From the NCBI RefSeq assembly GCF_004010195.1, contig NC_057719.1:33081671-33101670 (forward strand): a DNA stretch of 20,000 nucleotides. The letters are read 5' to 3'. Positions 1 to 20,000 of this stretch are shown here, piece by piece. Position 1 is the stretch's first letter. Each line of letters starts with the position of its first letter. The DNA comes from Chiloscyllium plagiosum (lineage: Eukaryota). The notes beneath the pieces are model-generated. The model did no database searches, had not been told where the DNA came from, and was given only the letters and a program-made list of their open reading frames with translations. A program made the position numbers and the translations under genes.

Positions 1-642
1 GTATTCTTCCTAGGTGGCTTTTACACTGGCTGACCTCATCTCTCTAAGAAATGCTTTCAATAAGAATCACTTTTACAAAGGTGGATGTTTTTGTTGATGT
101 TTCTTGAATTTTTTAAAGGATACTCTAAATCCAAGTGTAGTCATTAGGTGTTCCATGTAGTTAAACTTCAGCATGAATAAAAATATTCCTATTTATTTCT
201 CAGCCTTTCAATCCATTACTTCTTTTCCATTTTTGAAGTTAATGCAACACAAAAGATTTCAAGTGTGGCAAGGCAGAAGCCTCTCCATTATTCTTAAAAG
301 AAAATCAGTGTGAAATTCACCATTCTAAAATTCATTGACTAGCTTTTCTTTGAATAAACTTAATAGAACTTTTGAGTTGAAACCATAGTAGAAGTTAAAG
401 AATACTATCAATAAATATAGCTGACACATCCTGGAAAATGTATTACTCTGCAACTGCCTGAACTGTATGATCCTGAGAGAAAAGATCAAGAGATCCTGGG
501 CTGGCTTTTGTACTGGGAAATATGGCTACAGTGTTTCTGCTGTCAATATAAACATCAGTGATGCACCGACATAGCACTCAGTGACCCTCAGGCCTTTGAA
601 TGGTCAGCACCTTATCAAAGAAGAAGTCTGGCCTTTGAATAT

Positions 643-3600
643 GGTCCATGTAGGTATCATCGACATAAGTAGAAAGCAGGATAGAAATGTAAGGCAGGAT
701 TTCAGGGAGTTCGGGTGGAAGCTGAGAGCTAGAACAAACAGAGTTGTTATCTCTGGTTTGTTACCTGCACCATGTGATAGCGAGGCAAGAAATAGGCAGA
801 AATATCAACTGAACACATGGCTGAAGGGATGGTGCAGGAGAGAGGGTTTCAGGTACATGGATAATTGGGGCTCATTCTGGGGAAGGTGGGACCTCTACAA
901 ACATAACGGTCTTCACTTGAACCAGAGGGGTACCAATATCCTGGGTGGGAAATTTGCTGGTGCTATTCGGGTGGGTTTAAATGAGCTCAATAGGGGGATA
1001 GTTCCAGTGCACAGGAGGATGAGAGTAGGGAGGGCATGGACAGGATTTCACAGCCACAGGAATGTTCTGGCAGACAGAAAGCTGGTTTGAAGTCTGTCTG
1101 CTTCAACAGCAGAAGTATCTGAAATAAGGAAGGTGAGCTTGCAGCATGCATAGGTACCTGGGACTTCAATGTTGTGGCCATTTCAGAGACATGGATAAAG
1201 CAGGGTCAGAAACAGATGTTGTAGGATCCAAGGTTTAGATCTTGCGTTAAGAACAGGGAAGTTAGTAAAAGAGGGAGAGGTGTAGTTTTGTTAGTCAAGG
1301 ACAATATAACGGTGGCTGAAAGAACTTTTGACAAGGACTTGTCTACTGAGGTCGTATGGGTTGAGGTTAGAAAAGGAGAGGAGAGGTCACATTGTTGGGA
1401 GTTTTTTATTGGCCTCCGCAGAGTTCCAGGGATGTGGAGGAGAGGATCAGCAAAACGATTCTGGGTGGGAATGAAAGAAACAGGGTGGTCATTATGGGGA
1501 CTTTAACTTACCCAACATTGACTGGAAATGCTATAAATTTAATATGTCGGATGGATCAGTTTTTGTCCAATGTGTTGTAGGAGGGTTTCCTGACACAGTA
1601 TGTCAAAGGGCCAACAAGAGGGAAGGCCGCACTGGATCTGATGCTTGGTAATGAACCGAGCCAGGTGTTTAATTTAGTGGTGGGTGAGTACTTTGGAAAG
1701 AATGATCATAATTCAGTTATGTTTATATTAGCGATGGAAAGGAATAGGTACATACCCCAGGGCAAGAGTTATAGATGGAGGAAGAGCAATTATAATGCAG
1801 TTAGGCAAGACTTCGGATGCATAGAATGGGGTAGCAAAATGCAGGGGATGGGGAAAATTTAAATATGGAGCTAGTTTAAGGAACAGATATTGCGTGTCCT
1901 TGATAGGTATGTCCCTGTTAGGCAGGGAGGATGTGATAAGGTAAGGGAACCGTGATTTATGAAAGAAATTGCATCTCTTGTTAAGCAGAAGGAGGCTTAT
2001 GTGATGATGAGACAAGATGGTTCAGATGAGACAATGGAGAGATACAGATTAGCTCGGAAGGATTTAAAGAGATAGTTTAGAAGAGCAAAGAGAGGACATG
2101 AGCAGTCTTTAGCAAATAGAATAAAGGAGAACACTAAAGCTTTCTATATGTGAGGAATAAAAGGATGACTAGGGTAGGAATAGGGACAGTCAACGACAGA
2201 TGTGGGAAGTTGGGTGTGGATCCTGTGGAGATTAGAGAGGTGCTAAACGAACATTTCTCATCAGTTTTCACTCAGGAAAAGGAGAATATTGTAGAGGAGA
2301 AGAATGAGATACGGGATCTTAGACTAGAAAGGATTGAGGTTAGTTACGAAGAAGAGTTATCAATTCTGGAAGGAGTGAAAGTAGACAAATCCCTGGGCCA
2401 GATGGGATTTATCTGAGGATTCTCTGGGAAGCTAGATAGGAGATATTTGAGTCATCATTGTCTACGGGTTTGGTACCAGAGGACTGGAGGATTGCAAATG
2501 TGTGCCTTTGTTCAAGAAGGGCAGTAGAGATGACCCAGGAAATTATAGACCAGTGGGCCTTACATCTGTTGTAGGAAATGTTTTGGAAAGGATTATAAGA
2601 GATAGGATTTATAATCATCTAGGAAACAACAAGTTGATTGCAGATAGTCAATATGGTTTTGTTACGTGCAGGTCATGTCTCACAAACCTCTTTGAGTTTT
2701 TTGAGGTGACCAAGTATGTAGATGAGGGTAGGGCAGTTGACATGGTATACATAGACTTCGGTAAAGCCTTTGATAAGGTTCCACATGGAAGGCTGTTGGA
2801 CAAAATGCAGAGGCATGGGATTTAGGGTGATTTAGCAGTTTGGATTAGGAACTGGCTTTCTGTAAGAAGGCAGCGAGTGGTGGTTAATGGAAAATATTCA
2901 GCCTGGAGTCCAGTTACTAGTGGTGTGCCATAAGGATCTGTTTTGGGACCACTGCTGTTTGTCATATTTATAAATGACTTAGATGCAGGCCTTGGTGGAT
3001 GGATTAGTAAGTTTGCAGATGACACTAAAGTCGATGGAGCAGTGGACAGTGTGGAAGAATGTTGCAGGTTGCAGGGAGACTTGGATAAACTGCAGGATTG
3101 GGCTGAGAGGTGGCAAATGGAGTTTAATGCAGATAAATATGAGGTGCCCAGGTTGATAGTGCTGTTAAGAAGGCATTAGATGTGTTAGGTTTTATTGGTA
3201 AAGGGATTGCGTTCCAGAGCTGTAATGTCAGGCTGCAACTATAAAAAATGCTTGTGCAGCCGCACTTGGAATATTATGTACAGTTCTGGTCGCCCCATTA
3301 CAGGAAGGATGTGGAAGCATTGGAAAAGGTGCAGAGGAGATTTACCAGGATGTTGCCTGGTCTGGAGGGAAGGTCTTATGAGGAAAGGCTGAGAGATTTG
3401 GGTCAGTTCTCATTGAAAGGAAGAAGGCTAAGAGAGGATTTGATAGAGACATAAAAGATGATCAGGTGATTAGATAGGATAGAAAGTGAAAGGATGATGA
3501 AATCAGCTTGTACGAGGGGGCATCACTACAAATTAAGGGGTGATAGATGTAAGACAGATGTCAGAGGCAGATTCTTTACTCAGAGAGTGGTAAGGGTGTG

Positions 3601-3777
3601 GAATGCCCTGCCTGCCAATGTAGTTAACTCAGCCACATTAGGGAAATTTAAACAATCCTTGGATAAGCACATGGGTGATGATGGGATAGTGTAGGGGGAT
3701 GAGCTTAGGTTAATTCACAGGTTGATGCAACGTCGAGGGCCGAAGGGCCTGTTCTGTGCTATTCTGTTCTATGTTCT
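643..3777 (+). mobile_element. 5'-truncated, decayed CR1-clade LINE (ORF1 esterase end, ORF2 APE-RT, 3' tail)
   Basis: ORF1 SGNH-esterase-like motifs (VHVGIIDI, VVISGLLP, NGLHLNQRGT). ORF2 fragments: PLFKKGSRDDPGNYRPVGLTS, DFGKAFDKVPH, GPLLFVIFINDL, KFADDTK (FADD at 3012-3023), [25 protein letters not shown]. Many stops and frameshifts. 3' tail GGGCCGAAGGGCCTGTTCTGTGCT..TTCTATGTTCT. Possible TSD AATAT at 638-642 and 3778-3782. Confidence 0.95.
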
Positions 3778-3782
3778 AATAT

Positions 3783-4438: not shown

Positions 4439-5755
4439 TCAATGAACAAATCTAATTCCTGCTTTTGTGAATAAAATGCCGTTTTTAAAAAATGTTAAAT
4501 TTATTTAAAGCCTTAATTATTGAAATCACTAGTGCTTAAAAGGGGAGAAACTCTTAAAAATTAAAAAAGAAAACATTTAAGGGTGTGGAAAATTTATGAA
4601 TGTACAACAGAATCAGAATTATGATTTTATCCAAGTGTTTTCTGATATATGTGCAAAATATTGGAAATGATAATGACAAAAGCTGATGTGAAATGTCTGT
4701 CAGAAACATAACAATGGTAAGACAAGTGAGAAAAACAGAAAGGCATGTCTGCACAGACATTATGAATTTAAAGTTATTATGGACAGACTGTTCATTACAC
4801 TAATAGATTAGCATAACAACAAATGAATTAATCAATACTATTTTAAAAAATGGTTTGTGCTAATTCATCAAAATACAGGATGACTCCAAATTTCCAAAGG
4901 CATTAGAATGAATATCGAGGGATTTTCACTCAAGTCAGGAGCACGAACGTCAAGAAAATTCCTGACTCCACAAACCCAACCAGGGAGAAAATGGTTGGAA
5001 CATCTATCAAATGTTCTTAAAAGAAGTAGATGCAAAAAAAAAGGGGCATTGGTCAAAATGTTCCAGAAAATACTGGATTCTGGGAGCATTCCAGCATCAA
5101 TGAACAAATCTAATTCCTGCTTTTGTGAATAAAATGCCGTTTTTAAAAAATGTTAAATTTATTTAAAGCCTTAATTATTGAAATCACTAGTGCTTAAAAG
5201 GGGGGAAGCTCTTAAAAATTAAAAAAGAAAACATTTAAGGGTTGTGAAAAATTTGTGAATGTACAACAGAATCAGAATTATGAATTTATCCAAGTGTTTT
5301 CTGATATATGTGCAAAATATTGGAAATGATAATGACAAAAGCTGATGTGAAATGTCTGTCAGAAACATAACAATGGTAAGACAAGTGAGAAAAACAGAAA
5401 AGCATGTCTGCACAGACATTATGAATTTAAAGTTATTATGGACAGACTGTTAATTACACTAATAGATTAGCATAACAACAAATGAATTAATCAATACTAT
5501 TTTAAAAAATCGTTTGTGCTAATTCATCAAAATACAGGATGACCCCAATTTTCCAAAGGCATTAGAATGAATATTGAGGGATTTTCACTCAAGTCAGGAG
5601 CACAAACGTCAAGAAAATTCCTGACTCCACAAACCCAACCAGGGAGAAAATGGTTGGAACATCTATCAAATGTTCTTAAAAGAAGTAGATGCAAAAAAAA
5701 GGGGGCATTGGTCAAAATGTTCCAGAAAATACTGGATTCTGGGAGCATTCCAGCA
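4439..5755 (+). repeat. Direct tandem duplication, units 4439-5096 and 5097-5755
   Basis: Both units start TCAATGAACAAATCTAATTCC and end GGGAGCATTCCAGCA. About 13 substitutions and 1 indel by manual count (~98% identity). Confidence 0.97.
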
Positions 5756-5945
5756 GACTGGAAAATTATTTGCCCATAGTGTTAGATGAAGGAAAAAATG
5801 TAGGGGAATGGGTCTGGGTGGGTTGCGCTTCGGCGGGTCGGTGTGGACTTGTTGGGCTGAAGGGCCTGTTTCCACACTGTAAGTAATCTAATCATTAATG
5901 TGGTGTCCCTGTTCAAGAAGAGAGGGAGATAGAAAACAGGAAACT
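5665..5945 (+). mobile_element. Old CR1 ORF2 fragment interrupted by a SINE (its 5' part is also duplicated at ~5005-5096)
   Basis: VLKEVDA..ALVKMFQKILDSGSIPADWKI-[insert]-INVVSLFKKRGR*KTGN matches the CR1 pre-RT motif. Confidence 0.8.
5771..5893 (+). mobile_element. 5'-truncated HE1-like SINE (3' half)
   Basis: Matches the 3' half of the SINE at 15074-15371 (TGCCCATAGTGTTAG...GGGCCTGTTTCCACACTGTAAGTAATCTAATC). Possible ATT TSD. Confidence 0.88.
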
Positions 5946-6460
5946 TTTGTCTTCCACTCTCCCAAAGGAGTCCCTGCACCTAGTCAAAGGACACCCTATA
6001 TATCCAACTAGGCCCCAGACTTATCCTTTGCCTCTTCAAGAAACTTCAATACATTTAAACACATTGAAAAGTATAAAGGAGAATGGAAGAATTAAGTGCC
6101 CTTTGGGATTATTAAGAGCAGACATGGATAAATTCATTGAAACTGTAATGTTCATTATAACTGTCAAAGGTTTCAATCTCCTGCCCTTTAATTTAAAAAA
6201 AAGTCATGTCTTAGAATATCATTAATGCAAATTGTATCTACTGGAAGGCAGCTGTCTCTGTATAAAACACATGTCCAAAATATGACCTGCCTTCAATCTC
6301 CTCAATGTCATGGTAGATGCTGGATACAGGAGCACTATTTTGGCCATATCAGAAGTCTCCTCCCTGTGAAAATTCAGGTTTATATTTTATACCCACTTTT
6401 TGTATTTGTGAAAATGTTTGTTGCTTCATTAATTTTCTGGTTAGAGACAGATAATGAGGA

Positions 6461-7130
6461 GAGTCTAGATTAGACCTGCACATCCCCCAATGTAATTGAT
6501 TGTATCCATTGCTCCCAATGTGGTATCCTTTACATTGAGAAGGCTAGACGCCTTCTCACTGAGTTCGTTAGGGATCATCTCCAGGACACCAGCACCAATC
6601 AACCCAACTGCCCAACATTTCAACTCCCTCTCCCAATCTGCCAAGGACATGCAGGTCTTGGGCCTCCTCCACCGCCACTCCCTCACCACACGATGCCTGG
6701 AGGAAGAAAGCCTCATCTTCTGCCTCGGAACCCTTCAGCCACAGGGCATCAATGTGGACTTCACCAGTTTCCTCATTTCCCCTCCCCCCACCTTACCCCA
6801 GCTCCAACCTTCCAGCTCAGCACCATCCTCATGACCTGTCCTACCTGCCAATCTTCCTTCCCACCTTTCCACTCCAACCTCCTCTCTGACCTATTACCTT
6901 CATCCCCACCTCAATCCACCTATTGTACTCTTGGCTACCTTCTGCCCAGCCCCACCCCGCTCCCGTTTATCTCTCCACCCCGGAGGCTCCCTGCCTTCAT
7001 TCCTGATGAGGGGCTTTTGCCCAAAATGTCGATTTTCCTGTTCGTCGGATGCTGCCTGACCTGCTGTGCTTTTCCAGCACCACTGTAATCTAGACTCTGA
7101 TCTCCAGCATCTGCAGTCCTCACTTTTGCC
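6461..7130 (+). mobile_element. 5'-truncated Penelope-like element (GIY-YIG end + 3' terminal repeat)
   Basis: CTSPNVIDCIHCSQCGILYI and AQHFNSLSQS..EEESLIFCLGTLQPQGINVDF. 14 bp TSD ACAGATAATGAGGA at 6447-6460 and 7131-7144. Confidence 0.93.
6999..7034 (+). ncRNA. Degenerate minimal hammerhead ribozyme motif
   Basis: CTGATGA (7003-7009) G GGGC TTTT GCCC AAAA TGTC. The GAAA box is mutated to AAAA, so it is likely inactive. Confidence 0.65.
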
Positions 7131-8479
7131 ACAGATAATGAGGATACCATAGTTTCTATTTTTATTATAAAATAAACTTATGTTAGATCTTCAACATGGT
7201 AAAATTATGTTAAGTATATGTCTTGTATCAACACAGAAGCCTAGCATCAAGAGCCTGCAGAATGAAGACTGTAGTCACATATATTAAAAATGCAGCAAAT
7301 AGTTTTTTTCAATCTGAGGCAATGTCTCAGCAAATTATCAAGACACACTCTTTTACCACTATAGGATGTGGTGTGTAGCTTCCATGCCAATTACACAATT
7401 GGCAGGAGGGTAAAAAGCATGAGTGTGGAATTTTACAAATGCTGAATTGTAGATTGGAATCCCTGCAAATTATATGTGATGATTCAGCCTCTTTGCAGTT
7501 GATGAAGTGCCTGCCACCAAACAATGCCTGACAAGGCAATACGGAGAAATCAAAGTTTGCCTTCATCTGGTCCTGGTACTACTTTGCGAAAAAATCAGTA
7601 ATCTAAAGAAGATTTGCACAGCTCATTCAGTCATTTCCACGCTGTAATGTAGAGGAATATGTGCAGAGCGAATAATGTTTCTGAGTTACAATAGTCATTA
7701 ACTACTGTTCAAAATGTTCTATTTAATGGAATCTATTGAACACCATACAAAATAGACTTTCAGCCACAATGCTAAAAGGTTTTATCATAAAATTGGGAAG
7801 TAAAAATAACAGGGGTTGATTCAGGCAAGTCAGCTAACACAACGGAGTGTATCCTTCTGAGAACGAGCTCCAACTGGTATCTCAATGTCATGTTGCAACT
7901 TTCATTGCAACTGAGCCCGTGACATCTGATGCAGGAGCACCAGCACAGCATGAAAGAAAATATTTTATTTTCCCGCTCAGTCTTCATCACCATCAAAAAT
8001 ACACAGAAGCATCACATATTAATTGCACAACCTACATCAATATGCCACAGAAAGACTGCAAATTCTATTGAGCGAAGGGAAACCCAAAGTAAAAATAGTT
8101 CTGGATGTTGATAACTGATGATCAGCTTGATATATTGCAAGCTGATTAATTAAACTGACAAAAACTTTATCAAGATCACATCAGTAGGCTTAGGACAATC
8201 TAAATTCATAGCAATCACTTGCATTACATTAACTGCTGTGCTTGCAGCTCATTGGTATATACATTTTAGATTAAGATTAAAACATTGGGTATAAATTGCA
8301 AGACAAAAATGCAAGAAATCTCACAGCACTTCAAGCAAATTTGTGAAAAATATAATTTCCCTTTGTGTTTCTTCTGATGTGTTACTTTAAAATTATCAAA
8401 GGGCACAAACTATCCACAGAAAAATGCTTAATTTGACAAATAGTTCCTGACAGTGTTTAGCAAACTGCTATATCATGAA

Positions 8480-8587
8480 CACTGAATTCAAATTTTCAAA
8501 TTATCGACTGGGATTTGAACTCACGGTCTCTGTCTTATTAGTCCATACTTCATACAGCTGATAACATAAACAGAATACTACCGTGCC
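8480..8587 (-). mobile_element. Old tRNA-derived SINE head
   Basis: Minus strand reads GGCACGGTAG...GGACTAATAAGACAGAGACCGTGAGTTCAAATCCCAGTC (B-box-like GTTCAAATCC). Confidence 0.55.
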
Positions 8588-9128
8588 TAGAAGTTTGGGT
8601 ATTTTGTTGCTGCCCAGGAAGGTGGGGGGCCTACAGGAATATGACGAGGTTGAGGAGCAGGAGGCAGTGGGGTGGGAGATCAGTCTAGAATGGACCTCAG
8701 GATAAAGGCATCAGTAAGAGTGGAGAGATGACAAGTGCAGAGGTGGCAGCAGAAAAGGAAGTAAGTGTAGGGACAGCAAACGAGGTAGGGAAATGATTTA
8801 GAGAAAGAGACTAAGGCATCCATGCTAGCTCATTTTTAACCAAGGACACATTTTTCAACTTTCACTGTAGTGACCATCAGCAGAGGTAACCACAACAAAG
8901 AAGATTTTAAAATATTTATAAAGTCTACATTGAATTAACATTTTCTGCATTTTAAACTGTATTAAAGTAATTCATTGCAGGTAGCCTTGTTTATTAACTA
9001 ATGTGCTATTTTTACATTTTACAGTAAAAACCAGATATAGCAATATCTGAACTAGTAAGGTTCTGAACTTGTAATCTAAAGGCCTGGAATAAGCATCTCA
9101 AGATGTTGAAATCTATATTCTCCTAGTA

Positions 9129-9211
9129 CAGGTTCACAATCCTTTATCCGAAATTCTGAAATCCAAAAAACAACTGGTCTCAAGGATTTCGGATAAAGGA
9201 TTGTGTACGTG
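9129..9211. mobile_element. 83 bp MITE, Tc1/mariner-pogo (Tigger-like) type
   Basis: 26 bp TIRs CAGGTTCACAATCCTTTATCCGAAAT (9129-9154) and 9186-9211, 24/26 complementary. Flanked by TA at 9127-9128 and 9212-9213. Confidence 0.85.
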
Positions 9212-9559
9212 TATCTGCTTTTGATATGCTCTGTGTTGGCTTTCACATGCGTCTTTATAATGTTTGAATGTTACAAAGTAACTGGATCTGTTGCTCTCTT
9301 GGGATAGGGTTATTTTTCTTCTCTCAGAATCTGAGTATCTTTCTGGTTTTTGTTTCGGGCACAATTTGAATGGATTTCTCCAAAATTAAATCTTGCTTGT
9401 ATATTAAATAAAACTGACAAAAACTCATAAATAATCTCCATTGTGACAGTTTTCCGGTTACCTTTTTGCGGAGAGAACTGAGCCCCGGTGTAGCGCAACT
9501 TATCTTGGTGCAGCTGAATGCTAGTGCAGAATGGACGAAAGGCTTGGAGCGGAGTGTAA

Positions 9560-9848
9560 CAATTGTTGGACTGGGGCCTGGCCCAGGCGGTCAGACTATG
9601 TGCTGAGATGTTACTATTTGAAATTCTTTACTGGACTTTAATATCAATCCTTTTACTACGTTATAACTATTTTGTTTCTAACTTCTTTTTTAAACACTGC
9701 AAGGTACTTTTTCTTTTATTCCTCTTTTGTATCCAAGATTTGAATCTAAAATGGTGCCTTAAAGGCAGCCATTGTAAAAACCTTTCAATGTACAGCTGTA
9801 CTTCTATACTGGAGTCCATGTGACAATAAAGGATATTCTATTCTATCT
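9560..9848 (+). mobile_element. Non-LTR retroelement 3' tail fragment, family uncertain
   Basis: Ends ATGTGACAATAAA followed by ATTCT-type microsatellite tail. The left boundary is approximate. Confidence 0.5.
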
Positions 9849-9902
9849 ATAGTGAGAATTAATGAAATTGAAATTCCTCTGTAAGGCAAAATCTTCTGGT
9901 AA

Positions 9903-10065
9903 ATTTGATTTGATTTATTATTGTCACATGTACCTAGGTACAGTGAAAAGTTTTGTTTTGTGGGCAGTACAGGCAGCTCATACCACACAAAGATCACAGG
10001 GTGATTCTACAGAGTGAGAAATAAAATGTTACTCCTACAAAAAAGGTGCACAAAAAGCAAAATTA
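9903..10065 (-). mobile_element. LINE-like 3' tail fragment, tail-to-tail with the previous one
   Basis: Minus strand ends ACTTTTCACTGTACCTAGGTACATGTGACAATAATAAATCAAATCAAAT. Confidence 0.55.
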
Positions 10066-10767
10066 ACATTTGGTTTGAAAATTGAAACACTCTTGACCAT
10101 CTCCACCTCAGCACCATTGATGTTGCTCATTGAAGAATTATATATGGTCTCAGACTGAAGTAATTATCAAATATTTTAAAAACTTTATCACAAAACTTTA
10201 TCTTAAATATATATTTATTTTTATATTCTGGCGTCACCTAAGGACCTGTCTAACTAAAAATGATAGAGGATAAGCCACTATAGAGTTTTAAGAAGAGACA
10301 CTTGTCTTACATAACAAGGTGCAGTTAATTTCATAAAGCTATAGGTAGAATTAACATCAACTAGTTATGCATTATACAATTATCAGGAGTTAAATATGTT
10401 ATATATGTTTTATTCAAGACATAGTACAAAATGAACTGTTCCTCTACGAAACATAATCAGATCAGATGGTGTTCATTATAGCTTAGCACTAATTCTCTCA
10501 CATCCATTAACTTAAACAACAAAGAAGAAAGATAAATAGTAGGATATGTTGATAGGGTTAGAGAGGAATTATCTATTTCTGAACTGTGACTTCTACATAT
10601 TTATATGCAGCCGTATAAGGTATACTTGTTTTATGATAAATTCCAAGATTTAACACTGAATTTAATTCCGTGGGTAAAAACAATGACTGCAGATGCTAAA
10701 AACCAGAGTCTAGATTAGAGTAGTGCTGGAAAAGCACAGCAGTTCAGGCAGCATTCGAGGAGCAGTA

Positions 10768-10804
10768 AAATCGACATTTCGAGCAAAAGCCCTTCATCAG
10801 GAAT
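10768..10804 (-). ncRNA. Minimal hammerhead ribozyme motif
   Basis: Minus strand: ATTC CTGATGA A GGGC TTTT GCTC GAAA TGTC GATTT. Core boxes intact. Confidence 0.72.
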
Positions 10805-10855
10805 ACAGGTAGAGAGCTTGAAGGGTGCAGAGATAATTGAGAGGAGGGTGACCGT

Positions 10856-11891
10856 CGCGTTGTTGTGGTTTGGCGGTGGATGAGTCCAATGACCTGCATA
10901 TCCTCGGTGGAGTGGGAGGGGGAGTTGAAATGTTGAGCCACTGGGCGATTTGGTTGATTGGTGCGGGTGTCCCAGAGATGTTCCCTAAAGCGCTCTGCTA
11001 GGAGGAGTCCAGTCTCCCCAATGTAGAGGAGTCCGCATCGGGAGCAACGGATACAACAAATGATATTGGTGGATGTGCAGATAAAATTTTGAGGGATGTG
11101 GAAGGCTCCTTTAGGGCCTTGGATGGAGGTGAGGGAGGAGGTGTGGGCGCAGGCTTTGCAATTCCTGCAGTGGCAGGGGAAGGTGCCAGGATGGGAGGGT
11201 GGGTTGTAGGGAGGCGTGGGCCTGACCAGGTAGTCATGGAGGGAACGGACTTTGCGGAAGGTGGAAAGGGGTGGGGAGGGAAATATATCCCTGGTGGTGG
11301 GGTCTGTTTGGAGGTGGCGGAAATGTCGGCGGATGATTTGGTTTATGCGAAGGTTGGTAGGGTGGAAGGTGAGCACCAGGGGCGTTCTGTCCTTATTACG
11401 GTGGGAGGGGTAGGATCTGAGGGCGGAGGTGCAGGATATGGACGAAATGCGTTGGAGGGCATTTTTAATCACGGGGGAAGGGTAATTGCGGTCTCTAAAG
11501 AAGGAGGCCATCTGATGTGTTCTGTGGAGGAACTGGTCCTCCTGGGAGCAGATACAGCGGAGGCGGAGGAATTTGGAATATGGGATGGCATTTTTGCAGG
11601 AGGTAGGGTGGGAAGAGGTGTAATCCAGGTAGCTGTGGGAGTCGGTGGGTTTGTAAAAAATGTCAGTGTCAAGTCGGTCGTCATTAATGGAGATGGAGAG
11701 GTCCAGGAAGGGGAGGGAAGTGTCAGAGATGGTCCAGGTAAATTTAAGGTCAGGGTGGAATGTGTTGGTGAAGTTGATGAATTGGTCAACCTCCTCGCGG
11801 GAGCGCGAGGTGCCACCAACGCAGTCATCAATGTAGCGGAGGAAGAGGTGGGGAGTGGTGCCTGTGTAATTACGGAAGATGGACTGTTCCA
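10856..11891 (-). pseudogene. Truncated PLE ORF: RT C-terminal half + Cys-rich linker + GIY-YIG endonuclease
   Basis: FLRYIDD, LPFLDL, IFYKPTDSHSYLDYTSSHP, linker FPCHCRNCKACAH, NIICCIRCSRCGLLYIGETG..ERFREH. About 345 codons without a stop, but lacking the N-terminus and native C-terminus. Confidence 0.92.
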
Positions 11892-12059
11892 ATTATCTAT
11901 TTTTCTATCAGTCAGGGCATCTGACTCAGGAAATATATTGCTAGCTGTAAGCTTTGAACATGAACGCGATTGAAGATGAATTAACAAGGTGTGCAAAGAA
12001 TAAACTTAAATTGTTTTAGATCTTAAACACTGAGGCAAAATGAATATTCAAAAACTCAA
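11886..12059 (-). repeat. Inverted copy of 12635-12808 (174 bp)
   Basis: Reverse complement aligns without gaps to 12635-12808 with 6 mismatches by manual count. Confidence 0.96.
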
Positions 12060-12999
12060 CTGATAATTGAACGTCGATTTTACTGCTCCTCAGACGCTGC
12101 CTGAACCACTGAATTTAATTCCAACAATTCTTCCCAGCTCATCCTTGGCTCCTCCAGTTCAGAAGTGAGGAAATATGGTCCCTCAAGGTAATCCAGTTAA
12201 TTCCACACAATTATATCTGGCTACTGTCAGAATTGCAGGTCAGATGTAGTTGAAAGCTTACATGATCCATGCTCAGCTTTTCCAAAACAAAAAACACTTT
12301 CATATTTTGCCCTTTTCTCTACCTTAAAATTAGCAGGAGACACACATAATCAAATAATTATTCATATAATCAATCATTTATCTCCTTTGATCTTGGTATT
12401 GAAGGGGGCAACATTGCTTATTATTCAATATATATTAATATCTTGCTTTTCTGTTCAGTCAAATCCACGTGGAGCAATCAGAGTGTTCCAAATGCCTGAA
12501 GATGGTGTCATTTGGAGAAAACTTCTGTACTAAAACTTATGTCCCATTTTGTTTTTTTACTCCAGTTGTATTAAAGCATATTCCTTCAGTGTCTTTTTGT
12601 TTGCTTCTACCAAACTTCCAGTTTCTGCAGAGCATTGAGTTTTTGAATATTCATTTTGCCTCAGTGTTTAAGTTCTAAAACAATTGAAGTTTTTTCTTTG
12701 CGCACCTTGTTAATTCATCTTCGATCGCGTTCATGTTCAAAGCTTACAGCTAGCAATATATTTCCTGAGTCACATGCCCTGACTGATAGAAAAATAGATA
12801 ATTGGAACCAATTAAATTACCATTTTAGAACTATAACGAAGTTGAATGATCGCTAAAAGTGCAGTTATCTCTGCCCTGTTACTTTGCTTCTTAATGTAAA
12901 TTTTGATCTATTTTATCTTTGTTTTCAAAAATTCCAAAAAGATACTAGATCACAAATATTTCCAAGCATTTGCTTCCTCAACACTATTGCTACTATAGA

Positions 13000-13198
13000 G
13001 AGAAAATGAGGTCTGCAGATGCTGGAGATCAGAGATGGAAATGTGTTGCTGGAAAAGCGCAGCAGGTCAGGCAGCATCTAGGGAACAGGAGAATCGACGT
13101 TTCGGGCATTTCTTGAAGAAGGGCTAATGCCCGAAACGTCGATTCTCCTGTTCCCTAGATGCTGCCTGACCTGCTGCGCTTTTCCAGCAACACATTTC
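13000..13198. mobile_element. Palindromic PLE terminal-repeat mini-insertion
   Basis: Perfect 75 bp inverted arms 13036-13110 and 13126-13200 with a 15 nt spacer. TSD CACTATTGCTACTATAGA at 12982-12999 and 13199-13216. Contains hammerhead variant TTGAAGA A GGGC TAAT GCCC GAAACGTC (C3 changed to U). Confidence 0.95.
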
Positions 13199-13439
13199 CA
13201 CTATTGCTACTATAGACAAGGTTGTAGTGTTGCCAAGGCTCTCCAACCAAAAGCAAAGGGAACCTATTCTCCTGGCAGTTTAAAGTTGAAAGTGCCCTTG
13301 CACTATACCCCTGACTACAGATCCAAGTGATTAGTTTGAATTATATACCTAATAATTGCTACAAATGCTGGCATGATGCTGCCAAAATACTCTTAAAGGC
13401 ATTTCGATTGGCAGACAATCTGTGTTAGTTTGCTGCAGG

Positions 13440-14911
13440 AACTGTAGTAGAGGGAATGGAAGCTAGGGTGGTTGTATGCTCTTCATGCAGGATATAGGAG
13501 GTAAAGGTCACCACTCGTGTCCCTGCTGACATCACCAGCGATAAGTGCACCCAACTCCAACTCCTCACATACCATGTTAGGGAACTGGAGGTAGATGAAC
13601 TTCGGATCATTCAGGAGGCTGAGGGGGTGGTAGAGAGGAGTTATAGGGAGGTAGCCACACCTAAGTTATAGGAAAAAGTTACAGCATAAACGCTACTTGC
13701 GGAGCGTTTCAGGGAACACCTCTGGGACACCCGAACCAACCAACCCAACTACCCAGTGGCTCAACACTTCAACTCCCCCTCCCACTCCACCAAGGATATA
13801 CAGGTCTTTGGATTCCTCCATCGCCAGACCACAACAACACGACGGTTGGAAGAGGAGCGCCTCATCTTCCACCTAGGAACCCTCCAACCACAGGGGATGA
13901 ACTCGGATTTCACCAGTTTCCTCATTTCCCCTCCCCCCACCTTGTCTCAGTCAAAACGTCGATTCTCCTGTTCCCTGGATGCTGCCTGACCTGCTGCGCT
14001 TTTCCAGCAACACATTTTCAGCTCTGATCTCCAGCATCTGCAGACCTCACTTTCTCCTACAGTATAAAGATGGCTGGGTGACCATCAGGGGAATGAAAGG
14101 GAATCAACAGACAGTGCAGGGAACTCCTGTGGCTGTTCCCCTCAAGAATAAGTATATTGTTTTGGATACTCATAGGGTGAGGGGTGGGGGTACCTATCAG
14201 AGGAAAGCCAGAGTGGCCAGGTCTCTTGCACTGAGCCTGGCTCTGTGGCTCAGAAGGGAAGAGGGGAGAATAGGAGAACAATACTGATAGTAGTTTCAAT
14301 GGTGAAAGGAGCAGATAGAGGATTGTGTGGTCGCGAACAAGACTCCTGGATGGTATGTTGCCTCCTGGATGCCAGGGTCAGGGGTGTCATGGATTGAGTC
14401 TAAGGATTCATAAGGGGGAGGGGGAGCAACCAAAAGTTGTGGTACACATCAGTACCAATGAAATAGCTAGAAAAAGGGATGAGGACCTGAAAAGTGAATA
14501 TAGGGAGTTAGATTGGAAGCTAAACAGCAGGACAAGCAGAGTAGTAATCTTAGGATTGCTACTGGTGCCACAGGCTAGTGAGGCAAGGAACAGAGAGTGA
14601 GTGCAGCTGAATGCATGGCTGCAGAAATGGTGTATTGGGGAAACCAGCAGATATGTGGATATTTGGGATACTTTTGGGAAAGGTGAGACCTGTACAAGAA
14701 GGATGGATTTCACCTTAATAGAGGTTTGCAGGTGCTATTTGGGAGGGTTTAAACTAGATTGTCAGGGGATGGGAACGGGAGCTGTGGATTAGATGATTGA
14801 GTAGGTAATGAACAGCTAGATACAGTGTACAGAGAGTCTGTGAGGAGAAATAGACAGTTGATATGGTAAAGGTGCACTCAGTATGATGGGTTGTTCCTAA
14901 TTTAATGCAAA
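13440..14911 (+). mobile_element. Decayed CR1 LINE 5' part (ORF1: Cys motif/coiled coil + esterase, up to the ORF2 start)
   Basis: VVCSSCRI..KCTQLQLLTYHVRELE, then PVAVPLKNKYIVLD and GEGEQPKVVVHISTNEIARK..RVVILGLLLVP. Interrupted by a PLE. Confidence 0.87.
13691..14057 (+). mobile_element. PLE 3' fragment nested in CR1 ORF1
   Basis: LLAERFREHLWDTRTNQPNYPVAQHFNSPSH..GTLQPQGMNSDF. TSD TACAG(C/T)ATAAA at 13680-13690 and 14058-14068. An internal deletion joins the UTR to AAAACGTCGA (~13953). Confidence 0.92.
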
Positions 14912-14965
14912 GTTAAAAATCACATAAGCACTAGTCTTTGGAGCGCTGTTCCTTCACCATGTAGT
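14912..14965 (-). mobile_element. Short remnant of a second hammerhead-bearing repeat family
   Basis: Minus strand CATGGTGAA GGAAC AGC GCTCC AAAG ACTAG resembles a decayed CUGAUGA-A-GGAGC-AGC-GCUCC-GAAAGCUA. Confidence 0.45.
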
Positions 14966-15073
14966 TCTGACATCAGGTAGCTCCTCTGACTCCAGGCACA
15001 AGTTCCCTCCACTATCCCAGATTGGCCCTAGCCTCACTCTGGCCATCCTCTTGTTCCTATACAAGTGTAGAAT

Positions 15074-15371
15074 TAGATTACCTACAGTGTGGAAACAGGC
15101 CCCTCGGCCCAACAAGTCCACACCGATCCTCCAAAGAGTAACCCACCCAGACTCATTCCCCTACATTTACCCCCGACTAATGTACCTAACACTATGGGCA
15201 ATTTAGCATGGCCAAGTCACCTAACCTGCACATTTTTGGACTGTGGGAGGAAACCCACGCAGACACAGGGAGAATGTGCAAACTCCACACAGACAGTTGC
15301 CTGAGGCAAGAATTGAACCCGGGTCTCTGGTGCTGTGGTGCAGTGCTAACCACTGTGCCACCGTGCCACCC
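15074..15371 (-). mobile_element. Full-length tRNA-derived HE1-like V-SINE
   Basis: A box TGGCACAGTGG, B box GGTTCAATTC, V-domain TGTGTGGAGTTTGCACATTCTCCCTGTGTCTGCGTGGGTTTCCTCC, CR1-like tail. TSD GAAT at 15070-15073 and 15372-15375. Confidence 0.93.
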
Positions 15372-15692
15372 GAATGTCTTAGTGTTTTTGAATCTTACCT
15401 GTTCAAGCTTTCTCATGCCCCGTTCCAGCTCTCCTAAAACCATTCTTCAGTTTCCTTCTTCCTCTTGACTAGATGTTCCACACCCCTTGTCACCCAAGTT
15501 TCTTTCAACTTACTATCCCTTCCTTGCTTCAGTGGGACAACCTATCCAGCACTCTCAACAAGTGCTCCCTAAACAACTTCACATTTCTGTTGTGCATTCC
15601 CTGAGAATATCTGTTCCCAATTTAGGTGCCCCAGTTCCTGCCTAATAGCATTGTAATTCCCCACCCCCCCCATTTAAATGCTTTCCCATACT

Positions 15693-15843
15693 CTAGATTT
15701 GAGTGGTTCTGGAAAAGCACAGCAGGTCAGGCAGCATCCGAGGAGCAGGAATTCCTGATGAAGGGATTTTGCCTGAAACATTGATCTTCCTGCTTCTAAG
15801 ATAGACTTTAGTTTCCAGCATCTGCAGTCCTCATTTTTGCCTA
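15693..15843 (+). mobile_element. PLE terminal mini-insertion with inverted 5' piece and decayed hammerhead
   Basis: 12 bp TSD CTTTCCCATACT at 15681-15692 and 15844-15855. 15693-15750 is antisense to the terminus. Core reads CTGATGA AGGGATTTTGCCT GAAAC ATT. Confidence 0.9.
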
Positions 15844-18540
15844 CTTTCCCATACTGTCTGCACTTATCCTTCTCCATGAGTACAACAAAGGTCAGGGAGT
15901 TGTGATCACTATCATCAAAATACTCTCCCACCAAGCAATCTGACACCTGGTATGGTTCGTTGTCAAACACCAAATCCAATATGGCCTTCCCTCCAGTTGG
16001 CCTATCTATATATTGCCTGGACACACCTGACAAAAACTTCTCCAGACAAACTATTTGAACAAAGGAGGTTTCAATCAAGATTAGGGAAGTTAAAGTCACC
16101 CTGATAACAACCCTGTTACTTCTGCATATCTCCAAAATCTGCCTCCCAATCTGCTCCTCCATGTCTCTGTTGCTATAGAGGGGGCCTGTAGAAAACTCAA
16201 AATAAAGTGTCTGCTTCTTTCCTGTTTCTGACTTCCACCCATACTGACTCTGTAGGCAAACCCTTCTCGATGACCTCCCTGTTCTATTATCCTTGATTAG
16301 CAATGCCACTCCTTCACCTCTTTTACCTCCCTCCTTATTCCTTTTGAAACGTCTAAACCTTGGAACATCCAGCAACCATTCTTGCTCATGTGATATCCAA
16401 GTCTCTGTAATGGCCACAACATCATATTTCCAAGAACTGATCCTTGCTCTGCGTCTGTCATCTTTTTTTCCTGATACTTCTTACATTAAAATAGACAACT
16501 CAACTTATCATATTGACTGCCCCATCAAGTACCTATCCCTCCTCACAGACTCTCACAGACTTAGGCCGGTTGATTTTTTTTTGGCTCTTAGTGGGGTGTT
16601 TTAGCACCAGATCAGGTGCCTCTAACTCTGCCTGTGATGCGGGTGAAGTGTCAGACACATTAGCTCTCCTCTTGTGCCAAGAGCATCTCGTAAGAAATTC
16701 ATTTTCCTCTTCAAGCATCAAGACAGCCACATCCATCATATCTATCCCAGATTCCAAAGTATCTTCAATGATTGATGGAGAGAGAGAGAACCCATGGGTT
16801 CCAGAAAGACTCTTGAGGAACTCGGCACATTTTGACTGGACTGTTTGTGAAATTGTGGCTATCGTATGGTCCATGTGTTTGTTCAGGACCAATAGACCCA
16901 CCCAAACTTTATAGTTCACTAGACCTGATCTTCAATTGACCTTGCCTCTTACCCATGCTGGGCCGTTCTTATGGTTCCTACAAAACGTCATCCACTTCAG
17001 GAAATTACTCTGTCAATCAGCAGTATTGTGTCCTTGGCATTCCTGATGCTGCTTCATCACCATACCCACCCATCAAGTCTGGGAAGATCAGCTTTAACAC
17101 AGATCAAAGTCTCCTCCCTCATAAGCAACTCTGCTGGAGCTATGCATGTCACTGTAGGACGGGTGGTCCTATAATCAAATAGTAACTGGGACAGTTTCGT
17201 ATCTCGTGAAGCTGTAGACTGTTTCTTTAAGCCTGCCTTTAAAGTTTGGACTGCTCTTTCTGCCAGACCATTGGATGATGAATGGTATGGAGCTGTCCAT
17301 ATGGATCACAAACTATTTGATTTCAGGAAATACTCAACTTCCCTGCTAGTAAATGATGGCCCATTATCTGTGACCAATTCTTCTGGAGTCTGAGTACTAT
17401 AAAAGATGCACATAGTTTTTTCCATTGTTTGACGAATGAACTCCATGCACATCCAGTCACATTGAGCAGGCACCCACAATGACTGAGAACTTTATGCCCA
17501 TGAACTGACCTACAGAATCAACATGTAATGGAGTCCAAGATTTACCTGGCCATTCCTATGGATATGGGAGAGCTGCTGGCAGGAGTTTTTGTCCTTGTTG
17601 GCTCTCTGAGCATGCCCCACCAATTCAACTATGTCTGCATCCAATCTTGACCAAAGATATTAATTCATTTTGGAAACTCCTGAATGACCCAGATAAAATT
17701 CAGTCAGTAACTGGAGGTGGCCTTTCCTGTGGACAATTACTCTTGCGCCCCATGGTAATATATGCCATCCTGCAATGAAATCTGGTCTCTCCAGATCCAA
17801 AAAACATTTGTTTCAGTTTGATTAGGACCAGATCCTTTTGCATCCAAAGTCTGATATTGGAAGCTCTGACTAGAAGCATGTCCAGAAAATATAAAACTAT
17901 TATGGACTTGTGCAGTGGCGGTACCACCGGTGATGTCTCTGCCAGTGGGGGAATGGCTCAATGATTCGGCATTTGCTGCTTGGCCTCCCGGACAGTGTTC
18001 CAACTTGTAATTAGACACATATAGCATGAGACCCCATGGCTGAATTCAGTTTGAAGCTATGCGCAACACTGCCGTCTTCTCTTTAAGTCGACCTGGCAGG
18101 GCCCTTTGGTCCATTATTATTACAAATTGATTTCTGTAAAAATACATGTGGAACTTCCTGGGTCCAAATATGACCGCCAAACCGTCCTTCGCTATCTGGA
18201 CATATTTACACACAGCATTAGCCAAAATCTAGCATGCATTCGCTATTGTACATTCCTCTCCATTGGACCACCTATAAGATAATACTACCCTGGCACCATA
18301 TGGGGAGGCATTACATATCAATACCAGATCTCACATAGGATCATAACATGCCAACACCTTAGAGGATGATAGCTGTTTCTTCACGTCCTTATGAACTATG
18401 TCTGCAACCATTTCCAAGGTTTATCCTTCTTTAAGAGTTGATACAGAGGAGCCAGGATGGAGGCCAGGTTATGGATGAACTTTCAATAATAATTCACCAA
18501 TCCAAGGGAAGACCTAAGCTCCGGTACAGACTTGGGAGCT

Positions 18541-18978
18541 GGAATGAGGCGTGCGGGCAGGGGCTTGAAAGATAAATGGGAGGGGGGTGGGCAAGGGGAA
18601 GGTTTCTCTGGGACACCTGCACCAACCAACCCCACCGACCCATGACTGAACACTTCAACTTACCCTCCCATTCCACCAAGGACATGCAGGTCCTGAGCTT
18701 CTTCCATTGCCAACCTTAACCACCCGATGTCGGGAGGAAGAACATCTCATCTTCCACCTTGGAATCCTGCAACCACATGGGATTTCACCAGTTTCCTCAT
18801 TTCCCCTCCCCCACCTTCTCCCAGTCTGTTTCCACACTGTAAGTAATCTGATCTAATCTCTCAGAGCCCCGGCCCACAAGCCTCATTCCTGATGAAGGGC
18901 TTATGCCTGAAACGTCGATTCTCCTGCTCCTCGGATGCTGCCTCACTAGCTGTGCTTTTCCAGCACCACACTCTTGAC
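18541..18978 (+). mobile_element. Chimeric PLE insertion within Gypsy pol
   Basis: Inverted UTR piece 18541-18603, GIY-YIG tail ~18605-18824, SINE-type tail CTGTTTCCACACTGTAAGTAATCTGATCTAATC ~18826-18858, then the PLE terminus. No TSD seen. Confidence 0.87.
18885..18920 (+). ncRNA. Minimal hammerhead ribozyme motif
   Basis: ATTC CTGATGA (18889-18895) A GGGC TTAT GCCT GAAAC GTC GATT. Predicted cleavage after C18916. Confidence 0.75.
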
Positions 18979-19544
18979 AACAGATGTAACCTAGTCTTGT
19001 TGACTCTGTAGCCCAAGTAGGTCACTGGGGGTACCTGGAGCACATGTTTTTCCCTTTTAAAGAATATGCCAACCTGGGAGAAATAACTAAGGACTATGTC
19101 CAAGGCCCTCTAAGTGCTCCTTTTTGGTCTTCCCAGTTATTCACATATCATCTAGATAAATGGCAAAATGGATTTTATAAAATATTTTCTACTGTCTGCT
19201 GAAAGATTGCACAGGCTAATGATACACTAAACGGCAATCTCATATATTAGTACAAATCCTTATGGGTATTAATCATAATGTATTTTTGGGCACCCTCATC
19301 TAACCACAATTGTCAAGGTTACATGGCTGATGTCCAGCTTTGTGAAGGACAGCCTCCCAAGACGCCTAAAACTCTGCTTATATCTGTCAGTCAGGATTGG
19401 ACCAGATTAACAGCCCCAGTTAGGGAACTCATAATCATGAGGTCCAGCTGAGTGGCCTCATTACAGTCCCAGAATCCACTGCACTGTGGGATAGTGAATT
19501 TACATGCTCTTCTTTAAAATACTGTTGTAGGATCATTTACACTC

Positions 19545-19642
19545 ATTTGAAAAGCCAGAAAGGACCTTGGTTTAACACCTCATCTAAAAGATTGCACTTC
19601 TAGCATTGCTGTACTCCTTAATATTATGCTGGAATGCTAACC
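19545..19642 (-). mobile_element. Old Deu-domain SINE fragment
   Basis: Minus strand AGTGCAATCTTTTAGATGAGGTGTTAAACCAAGGTCC resembles the DeuSINE core as I recall it (GGTGCCGTCTTTCGGATGAGACGTTAAACCGAGG). Confidence 0.6.
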
Positions 19643-19700
19643 GTGGTTTTTTTAAATGCACTGCAGGCCAGATCACAGGAGCAACAGTCTGTACCCTGAA

Positions 19701-19719
19701 GTGTGTGTGTGTGTGTGTG
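19701..19719. repeat. (GT)9 microsatellite
   Basis: Direct reading. Confidence 0.9.
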
Positions 19720-19735
19720 CACTGTTGAAATATTT

Positions 19736-20000
19736 GAGAAGAAAGTGAGGTCTGCAGATGCTGGAGATCAGAGCTGGAAATGTGTTGCTGGAAAAGCGCA
19801 GCAGGTCAGGCAGCATCCAGGGAACAGGAGAATCGACGTTTCGGGCATAAGCCCTTCTTCAGGAATGAGGAAAGTTTGTCCAGCCGGCTAAGATAAAAGG
19901 TAGGGAGGAGGGACTTGGGGGAGGGGTGTCGGAAATGTGATAGGTGGAAAGAGGTCAAGGTGAGGGTGATAGGTCAGACTGGAGTGGGGGCGGAGAGGTC
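19736..20000 (-). mobile_element. PLE 3' terminus, continuing beyond the window
   Basis: Near-identical to 13000-13110 and to the reverse complement of 13955-14057. Confidence 0.93.
19831..19866 (-). ncRNA. Intact minimal hammerhead ribozyme motif
   Basis: Minus strand: ATTC CTGAAGA A GGGC TTAT GCCC GAAAC GTC GATT. Perfect helix II and palindromic ACGT helix III. Confidence 0.8.

Follow-up and report, generated by a model that had tools for sequence, protein, structure and literature searches.

Hammerhead motifs within PLE insertions

The window, a 20,000-nt stretch of the Chiloscyllium plagiosum genome (NC_057719.1, positions 33,081,671 to 33,101,670), carries six hammerhead cores, at 7003(+), 10800(-), 13113(+), 15755(+), 18889(+) and 19862(-), where a previous sequence-only reading had placed them. 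They are termed copies A, B, C, E, F and G in this order; D denotes a half-core at ~13954(+). The latter is one of three half-cores overlooked in that reading, the others being found at ~12069(+) and ~13102(-).

Copy A (6999..7034, +) has lost the general base through a change of G12 to A, carries a C15.2 to U change and is predicted to be dead. It belongs to insertion A (6447..7144, +), which includes the endonuclease 3' end, the 3' UTR, the hammerhead and the tail, with an exact 14-nt target duplication (6447-6460 and 7131-7144) and an inverted piece of 13 nt at 6461-6473. In copy B (10769..10804, -), C15.2 to U disrupts the palindrome, C11.2 is changed to U, and helix II is poorly formed in context. 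The surrounding insertion B (10654..12122, -) retains the C-terminal part of the RT, a Cys linker and the GIY-YIG domain at 10850-11890. It is bounded by a 16-nt target duplication (10654-10669 and 12107-12122) and contains a captured inverted copy of the flank (11886-12059) and an inverted half-core piece (12068-12106).

Copy C (13110..13144, +) has C3 changed to U, and its sense arm starts from the second base of helix I. It is locked within a 75-bp fold-back in insertion C (12982..13216), a mini-insertion of two PLE ends arranged head-to-head, with the half-core at 13102(-) and an 18-nt target duplication (12982-12999 and 13199-13216). Rfam microRNA matches at 13064-13172 correspond to this fold-back, lie far under the family cut-offs and were rejected. 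Insertion D (13680..14068, +) joins the endonuclease 3' end to the half-core at 13954 and has a full tail; its candidate target duplication matches in 10 of 11 nt, which is inside the chance range. Copy E (15751..15786, +) has four departures, including C17 and G16.2, and is predicted to be dead. Its sense arm begins at the first base of helix I, and its host, insertion E (15681..15855), is a head-to-head mini-insertion within a LINE remnant with an exact 12-nt target duplication (15681-15692 and 15844-15855).

Copy F (18885..18920, +) has intact catalytic boxes and a C11.1 to U change that makes a G.U pair at the base of helix II; it has no tail, and a search for a target duplication found none. 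Copy G (19831..19866, -) has a perfect core with a predicted cut between 19835 and 19834, and its helix I consists of two pairs, one U.U and one further pair. The segment and tail behind it (19737..19830, -) are conserved, and copies elsewhere stop at ~19781 or ~19740. With one mismatch allowed, the target duplications around A, B, C and E span 14-20 nt, and none of 396 random pairs reached 13. The copies are 1-6 kb apart, each in a separate insertion, and do not form the tandem units of non-LTR retrozymes.

PLE protein homology, in the form of same-strand GIY-YIG remnants, reaches up to A, B, D and F. C and E comprise the terminal piece only, and the region upstream of G leaves the window. 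The best protein match is 82% identical and comes from Chiloscyllium; the nearest proteins are those of bamboo shark. The GIY-YIG domain of insertion B is weak on its own (E 0.04), and over 349 aa the protein shares 44% identity with P0018, itself above both Pfam cut-offs. When the ORF start was sought, no retrieved protein matched the translated end, and the longer homologues are non-shark or fused. The order of an RT followed by a C-terminal GIY-YIG endonuclease is that of the Neptune clade. The Cys linker C-x4-C-x2-C (residues 239-247), located ahead of the endonuclease, fits the CX2-5CxxC pattern, which is common to Neptune and Nematis (PMC8557442). We infer Neptune rather than Nematis because the host is a vertebrate.

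Structure and decay of the hammerhead cores

The catalytic boxes CUGANGA, GAAA and NUH occur in type I order. They are perfect in G and intact in B, E and F; single changes affect A (G12) and C (C3). An extra base between A9 and G10.1 is found in all six copies (A in five, G in one). The G10.1-C11.1 pair that closes helix II is present in four of six copies and has become G.U through CpG decay in E and F. The helix II stem, described earlier as largely kept, is broken in the 15755 copy. The loopless palindrome at 15.2-16.2 is ACGU in C, F and G and has been lost through CpG changes in A, B and E, so that the palindromic helix III of the sequence-only reading stands for 13113, 18889 and 19862 but not for the other three copies.

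Departures from the earlier consensus number two at 7003, two at 10800, one at 13113, four at 15755, one at 18889 and none at 19862. Over the six cores, seven of ten departures fall at five CpG positions of 22 (p ~0.002). The window copies are mostly decayed, and only G is predicted to have a fully competent core. Of the two copies previously named the best candidates for activity, 19862 alone has a perfect core; 18889 has C11.1 changed to U. As these two lie on opposite strands, they could not form a hammerhead dimer on one transcript, and there are no two intact cores on a common strand in the window.

Because helix III cannot close in a monomer, activity would require a dimer or a protein; the earlier expectation of a dimer is upheld, with protein as the alternative. 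By nearest-neighbour energies, an inactive duplex spanning the cut site is more stable than the active dimer of G by ~11-13 kcal/mol. The same gap is 4-22 kcal/mol in relatives. The shark motif and its relatives are not distinguished by folding energy. A second palindrome overlaps the cut site, and helix I of the shark motif ranks among the weaker ones.

Conservation and covariation

The full consensus with up to four mismatches was matched in none of 200 dinucleotide shuffles of the window. A loose core pattern is at chance level, with six matches where 2.65 are expected and equally high counts in 14 of 200 shuffles. Since all copies belong to one repeat family, the six cores represent one motif seen six times. 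In an Rfam covariance-model search, none of the 25 matches up to E 10 was to a hammerhead family.

The excess conservation by which the ribozyme proposal was to be judged is present: copies A, B, F and G share 86-94% identity over the 36-nt motif, and the 40 nt upstream are 35-43% identical in comparisons with G and between A and F (68% between A and B; the upstream region of F is rearranged). The 50 nt after the motif are almost as conserved as the motif itself (80-88%), and therefore the conservation is not specific to catalysis.

Covariation, also proposed as a check, was found in helix I of relatives. The alignment comprised 19 motifs, namely copy G and 18 relatives hand-picked from 125. 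These had been found by a pattern that prescribed the core and three of the helix II pairs, which are for this reason uninformative in their invariance; helix I lay outside the pattern. The two inner helix I pairs are kept in 19/19 and 18/19 aligned motifs, with ten double changes each. None of 500 shuffles reached the helix I covariation score, and pairing is 85.5% versus 20-51% in slid controls. Two of five covariation measures were not above shuffles (466/500 and 101/500), and the shuffle counts overstate the support, because the relatives are mutually related and represent about six helix I types. The covariation of helix I in relatives indicates selection on the motif at the RNA level. 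In 56 of the 125 relatives the fourth pair of helix II does not form. Of the 125, 21 have same-strand PLE protein homology upstream, six have it only otherwise placed and 98 lack it in the flank covered. In the shark, a natural variant converts the helix I U.U to U-A (7.5% of depth in run X1, 37% in X15).

Copy boundaries and transcripts

Genome-wide statements derive from one read survey, of which 40 variant rows (of 90), 15 joints (of 55) and 24 loose ends (of 894) were listed. Two of the six copies in the window start at the ribozyme 5' edge and not at the cut site. Among the 15 joints listed in the survey, nine of the 11 non-deletion joints are at this edge, and copy ends do not accumulate at the cut site in the rows listed. 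Because copy starts at the 5' edge are frequent, the usual template may be uncut RNA that begins at this edge. The depth over the 126-nt end is 4-7 times that upstream, and two 3' ends ~40 nt apart agree with the PLE tail described previously (PMC11167929, PMC8557442). Inversion junctions vary between copies.

Among relatives, 94 motifs of three families showed no sharp 5' edge (three rows being misassigned to family); their shared upstream length ranges from 0 to 300 nt and is steeply truncated without a single site. An initiator-like TCATTCC is present at the first base of helix I in three of four copies that keep upstream sequence. Such a motif is not enriched before the core in relatives (3/15 and 4/15 versus 16% and 18% in controls). 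A splice acceptor at the 5' edge, as in D. virilis, was ruled out, as no AG precedes it. A single-cell poly(A) run, whose library type is blind to cap and cut sites, gave 3762 reads in both directions with no pile of starts or ends.

Discussion

We are largely confident that the motifs are minimal type I hammerheads (min-HHR) and that they belong to the pseudo-LTR of an endonuclease-bearing shark PLE, which is probably a member of the Neptune clade. The claim of such hammerheads at PLE termini is supported by the endonuclease remnants upstream on the same strand and by a full match to the published consensus. The shark motif is an added example of a class known since 2014 (PMC4209133). Our search of a limited collection of open-access papers found no report of a shark min-HHR.

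The min-HHR of metazoan PLE pseudo-LTRs (Cervera and De la Pena 2014, PMC4209133) share with the shark copies the type I core, the extra base after A9, G10.1-C11.1, the loopless palindromic helix III, the short helix I and a layout of mostly solo motifs or opposite-strand pairs 100-700 bp apart. The loopless helix III, short helix I and extra base had been considered unusual, yet all are described min-HHR features, and the appeal to the CChMVd viroid to explain the base after A9 is superfluous, as this base is already part of the min-HHR (PMC4209133). The Neptune row of Acropora digitifera agrees in the helix II start, the 4-nt loop and the CG-UC end, and is nearly the same motif; in a Nematostella row helix I begins with UUC, as here (PMC4209133). 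The table and alignment rows covered from that study include no cartilaginous fish. The shark motif differs in the U.U at the third helix I pair of common subfamilies. Small PLE hammerhead variants with a very short stem III that cleave as dimers (Lunse, Weinberg and Breaker; via PMC6765202) are similar by their description, and may already include shark examples.

In the anole Poseidon element PAc (Frangieh et al. 2024, PMC11167929), the hammerhead likewise lies upstream of two tail-defining reverse-transcription starts. The use of uncut RNA as template and protein-assisted cleavage are probably also shared, as we infer on the shark side. PAc belongs to a different clade, and the shark protein has the Cys linker. 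PLE insertions with an inverted pseudo-LTR and tail (PMC3846280, PMC8557442) resemble those of the shark in combining a 5'-truncated copy with an adjacent inverted copy, a tail at one end only, target duplications and captured host DNA. In contrast, some shark inserts are only 150-200 nt long, and a recurrent breakpoint at the motif 5' edge is absent from the passages covered of these papers.

The motif is on the sense strand at the element 3' end, before an optional 35-40 nt tail, and the insertions are truncated, often inverted, and have target duplications. By analogy with the published elements (PMC4209133, PMC11167929), two motifs in a tandem master-element transcript would pair their ACGU palindromes into helix III. 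The dimer, probably helped by the element's own protein, would be cut slowly after GUC. Against this, the anole study found no RNA reads that end at its site (PMC11167929). Reverse transcription would start ~50-95 nt downstream on uncut RNA, and the motif would therefore be copied intact into most inserts. After insertion, copies would decay, chiefly at CpG; for copy G nothing in the window offers a partner.

It is possible, but rather unlikely, that the motif is kept as a folded signal, such as a protein-binding site or an RNA 5'-end structure, with cleavage rare or irrelevant in the shark element. Hammerhead mutants left insertion of the anole element in vitro unimpaired (PMC11167929), copy ends gather at the motif 5' edge and not at the cut among the rows listed, and the weak helix I and the second palindrome over the cut site point the same way. 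Yet both the catalytic boxes and the covariation of helix I persist across hosts ranging from corals to shark, and the anole motif does cut once protein is added (PMC11167929). This alternative differs from the ribozyme reading solely in how much cleavage matters.

We doubt that the short units headed by a hammerhead form a separate non-autonomous family, retrozyme- or SINE-like, with masters of its own. The excess depth over the 126-nt end and the restriction of C and E to that end would suit such a family, but C is 97% identical to G, which continues upstream, A, B, D and F hold coding remnants, and inversion junctions vary from copy to copy. Non-LTR retrozymes, whose type I hammerheads are related to those of PLE pseudo-LTRs and which are reported in the one chondrichthyan sampled, form tandem arrays with a motif per unit, whereas the shark units are dispersed with target duplications (bioRxiv 10.64898/2026.07.22.740005). 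A chance hairpin in a repeat, with no ribozyme, would fit the lack of an Rfam hammerhead match and the chance level of the loose pattern, but is highly improbable given the fully matched consensus, the PLE-end position and the double changes in helix I.

Returning to the min-HHR reading, the function of PLE hammerheads has been called unknown (PMC8557442), and they are dispensable in vitro (PMC11167929). We speculate, as an improbable extension, that the first base of helix I is where the element RNA begins and that the downstream hammerhead cut makes the 3' end of this RNA, so that the 32-nt ribozyme core would be a terminal repeat. A tail-primed, strong-stop-like cDNA of ~85 or ~125 nt would then jump to the cut 3' end, building the pseudo-LTR, or integrate as is, often folded back. 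The literature search, within the same scope, found no strong-stop or 5'-edge report. If true, this scheme would provide the PLE hammerhead with a definite role and explain the abundance of hammerhead-headed stubs. Reverse-transcription stops are recorded in a genome with very many copies, and if these stops mark an RNA 5' end at the ribozyme edge, the role of PLE hammerheads becomes a testable question.

Minimal hammerhead motifs in the termini of Penelope-like elements

All six hammerhead cores of the sequence-only reading were confirmed at their places, 7003(+), 10800(-), 13113(+), 15755(+), 18889(+) and 19862(-) (copies A, B, C, E, F and G, respectively). They depart from the consensus at two positions in A and B, one in C and F, four in E and none in G; no match to the core was found in 200 shuffles of the window. 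Three further half-cores are located at ~12069(+), 13102(-) and 13954(+), the last termed D. One repeat family contains all these cores and half-cores, and an Rfam search of the window returned no hammerhead match.

The identification as minimal type I hammerheads in the termini of Penelope-like elements (PLEs) holds, as both the published features and the PLE-end setting agree. According to PMC4209133 (Cervera and De la Pena), the minimal hammerhead is defined by removal of the helix III loop, and its recurring features include one additional nucleotide separating positions 9 and 10.1, a G10.1-C11.1 pair and palindromic positions 15.2-16.2; helix I is short, most motifs are solo and some form opposite-strand pairs. 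The same paper reports no cleavage by monomers and low cleavage by dimers. The supplement rows examined include motifs with a two- or three-pair helix I and a coral Neptune motif with a layout almost identical to the shark one; no shark row was among them. The loopless helix III and weak helix I had been considered unusual; both are already features of the published motif, and the shark motifs belong to a known class. A literature search found no report of shark minimal hammerheads, and a paper on dimers by Lunse et al. may list one.

Host element and insertion anatomy

The reading frame at 10852-11889(-) encodes the end of a reverse transcriptase (RT), a C-x4-C-x2-C linker and a GIY-YIG domain. 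The best-matching relative (82% identical) is named Chiloscyllium punctatum and is followed by other sharks and rays; the frame also shares 44% identity across 349 residues with a protein passing the Pfam RT and GIY-YIG cut-offs. A Cys linker of this kind is characteristic of two PLE clades, Neptune and Nematis (PMC8557442); judged from its vertebrate host, the shark element probably belongs to Neptune. Coding remnants on the same strand run up to A, B, D and F.

Insertions A, B, C and E are bounded by target duplications of 14-20 nt (one mismatch allowed), which exceed all 396 random pairs; the 11-nt candidate of D is within chance (7/396), and none was found at the flanks of F. On the 5' side of the same four insertions lies a piece in inverted orientation, and of the two arms of each pair only one has the last 35-40 nt. 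This layout matches the inverted pseudo-LTR and tail pattern of PLEs (PMC3846280, PMC8557442). The window contains neither a full-length element nor a direct pair of termini, and the upstream part of copy G runs past its end.

Insertion B encloses a 174-nt inverted copy (11886-12059) of 12635-12808, with 168/174 positions identical. The copy sits inside the B target duplication, with the truncated RT on one side and the inverted half-core on the other, and its source lies ~510 nt outside the insertion; we read it as the product of template switching to host DNA close by. The layout of B is repeated in one retrieved contig (L001:1005-1133 and L002:1455-1582), in the order of an inverted hammerhead-bearing end, a truncated RT-endonuclease frame and a sense hammerhead 135 nt past the protein match. 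An inverted F-type 3' UTR piece at 18516-18600(-) ends just past the 5' strand of helix I, and ~30 nt inserted in copy F at 18825-18858 resemble a repeat end at 5868-5892.

Other repeats in the window include a broken CR1/L2-type LINE with an esterase-like ORF1 and RT by Pfam (575-3780), a piece similar by eye to the LINE 5' part (~14060-14870), and a LINE endonuclease remnant holding insertion E (15677-16480(-)). Translations of 16950-18520(-) revealed a frameshifted remnant, which we take to be that of a Gypsy-type LTR retrotransposon, with motifs resembling those of RNase H and integrase. A tandem duplication (4439-4855 and 5097-5514) has a spacing of ~659 nt and 95-96% identity. The short inverted repeat at 9127-9213, possibly a MITE, matched several microRNA models below their cut-offs. 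A short repeat forms an inverted pair (5796-5892 and 15072-15168, 91% complementary) and is presumably a shark SINE or LINE end.

Conservation and covariation

A search pattern that fixed the core plus three pairs of helix II and left helix I free yielded relatives at no fewer than 121 loci, with at least 125 distinct motifs. In an alignment of copy G with 18 hand-picked relatives (n = 19), the inner two helix I pairs are kept in 19/19 and 18/19 motifs, with ten double changes each, and the outer two in 13/19 and 9/19. In paired cells and in covariation, helix I outscores each of 500 shuffles and every slid control; two other measures do not. Since the rows are related and comprise about six helix I types, this support is good but not independent. 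A variant turning the helix I U.U into U-A accounts for 7.5% of depth in shark read run X1, 12% of reads in X21, 37% in X15 and 6.6% in X16.

Among the window copies, identity is 86-94% in the motif, 80-88% in the next 50 nt and 35-43% in the 40 nt upstream (68% for A-B). Conservation starts at the motif and extends beyond it.

The 5' edge of the copies

Depth in X1 is flat at 12-17 million across 19783-19860 and is 2-3 million across 19874-19964. The largest rows of loose ends on the upstream side are at 19865 (307 contigs) and 19866 (417 contigs), with an agreement of 0.31, which implies unrelated flanks. Among 15 of 55 joints listed, 11 are not deletions, and 9 of these terminate on one side within 19865-19871; 8 of the 12 listed rows of a second joint table end at 19865-19866, and the other end of one row, given without orientation, is at C17. 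In the window, C starts at the second base of helix I and E at the first. A preference of shark breakpoints for the 5' edge of the motif is probably real; a literature search found no report of such an edge.

The step is due in part to subfamilies that differ upstream: the X21 loose-end consensus resembles the upstream sequence of B, and in such divergent subfamilies any joint located farther upstream than the edge is more difficult to detect. Alternatively, the endonuclease could cut at the ATT that opens helix I, consistent with the ATT preference described in PMC11167929. In three families of relatives the copies are steeply truncated without one common edge, and the relatives show no enrichment of an initiator-like motif. 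Transcription start at the edge is a possibility that we consider somewhat doubtful, and a full strong-stop model, with RNA starting at the first base of helix I, a hammerhead cut producing the 3' end and a short cDNA that jumps or integrates, is very unlikely.

Proposed mechanism

The position of the motif, the anatomy, the covariation and the decay are observed. As the mechanism, we suggest that two motifs in tandem-master transcripts would pair their palindromes, probably assisted by the element's own protein, and that the paired motifs would slowly cut after GUC. As described in PMC11167929, the motif of an anole element cuts only with protein, insertion by its hammerhead mutants is normal, the template is mainly uncut RNA, and reverse transcription begins at two internal sites, setting the tail. 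The shark observations agree with this scheme: copies terminate at two positions separated by ~40 nt (19781 and 19740), and depth passes the cut site without a step (15.5 vs 14.5 million in flanking bins).

State of the individual copies

Seven of the ten core departures are at CpG positions (p ~0.002), the pattern to be expected if methylated copies decay once inserted. In copy A the general base of the hammerhead, G12 (PMC6155905), is lost; E has four changes, C17 among them; B has lost the palindrome, and its helix II folds poorly in context. F and G had been named the best candidates for activity; this stands for G, the only one of the six with a perfect core, and is weakened for F by a G.U at the base of helix II. 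F lies on the plus strand and G on the minus strand, so one transcript across both would form a duplex rather than a hammerhead dimer. The lowest-energy dimer of G is formed by a second palindrome, UCGA, at 19832-19837(-), which overlaps the cut site and in this prediction would hide the scissile bond. The active dimer of G is 11-13 kcal/mol above that duplex; the gap in relatives is 4-22 kcal/mol, so the energy calculation does not rank copy G.

Copy C has U3 and lies inside a perfect 75-bp fold-back (13000-13198, -158 kcal/mol), in which two PLE ends are joined inside the hammerhead. The fold-back has weak Rfam microRNA matches. If transcribed, it could yield double-stranded RNA.
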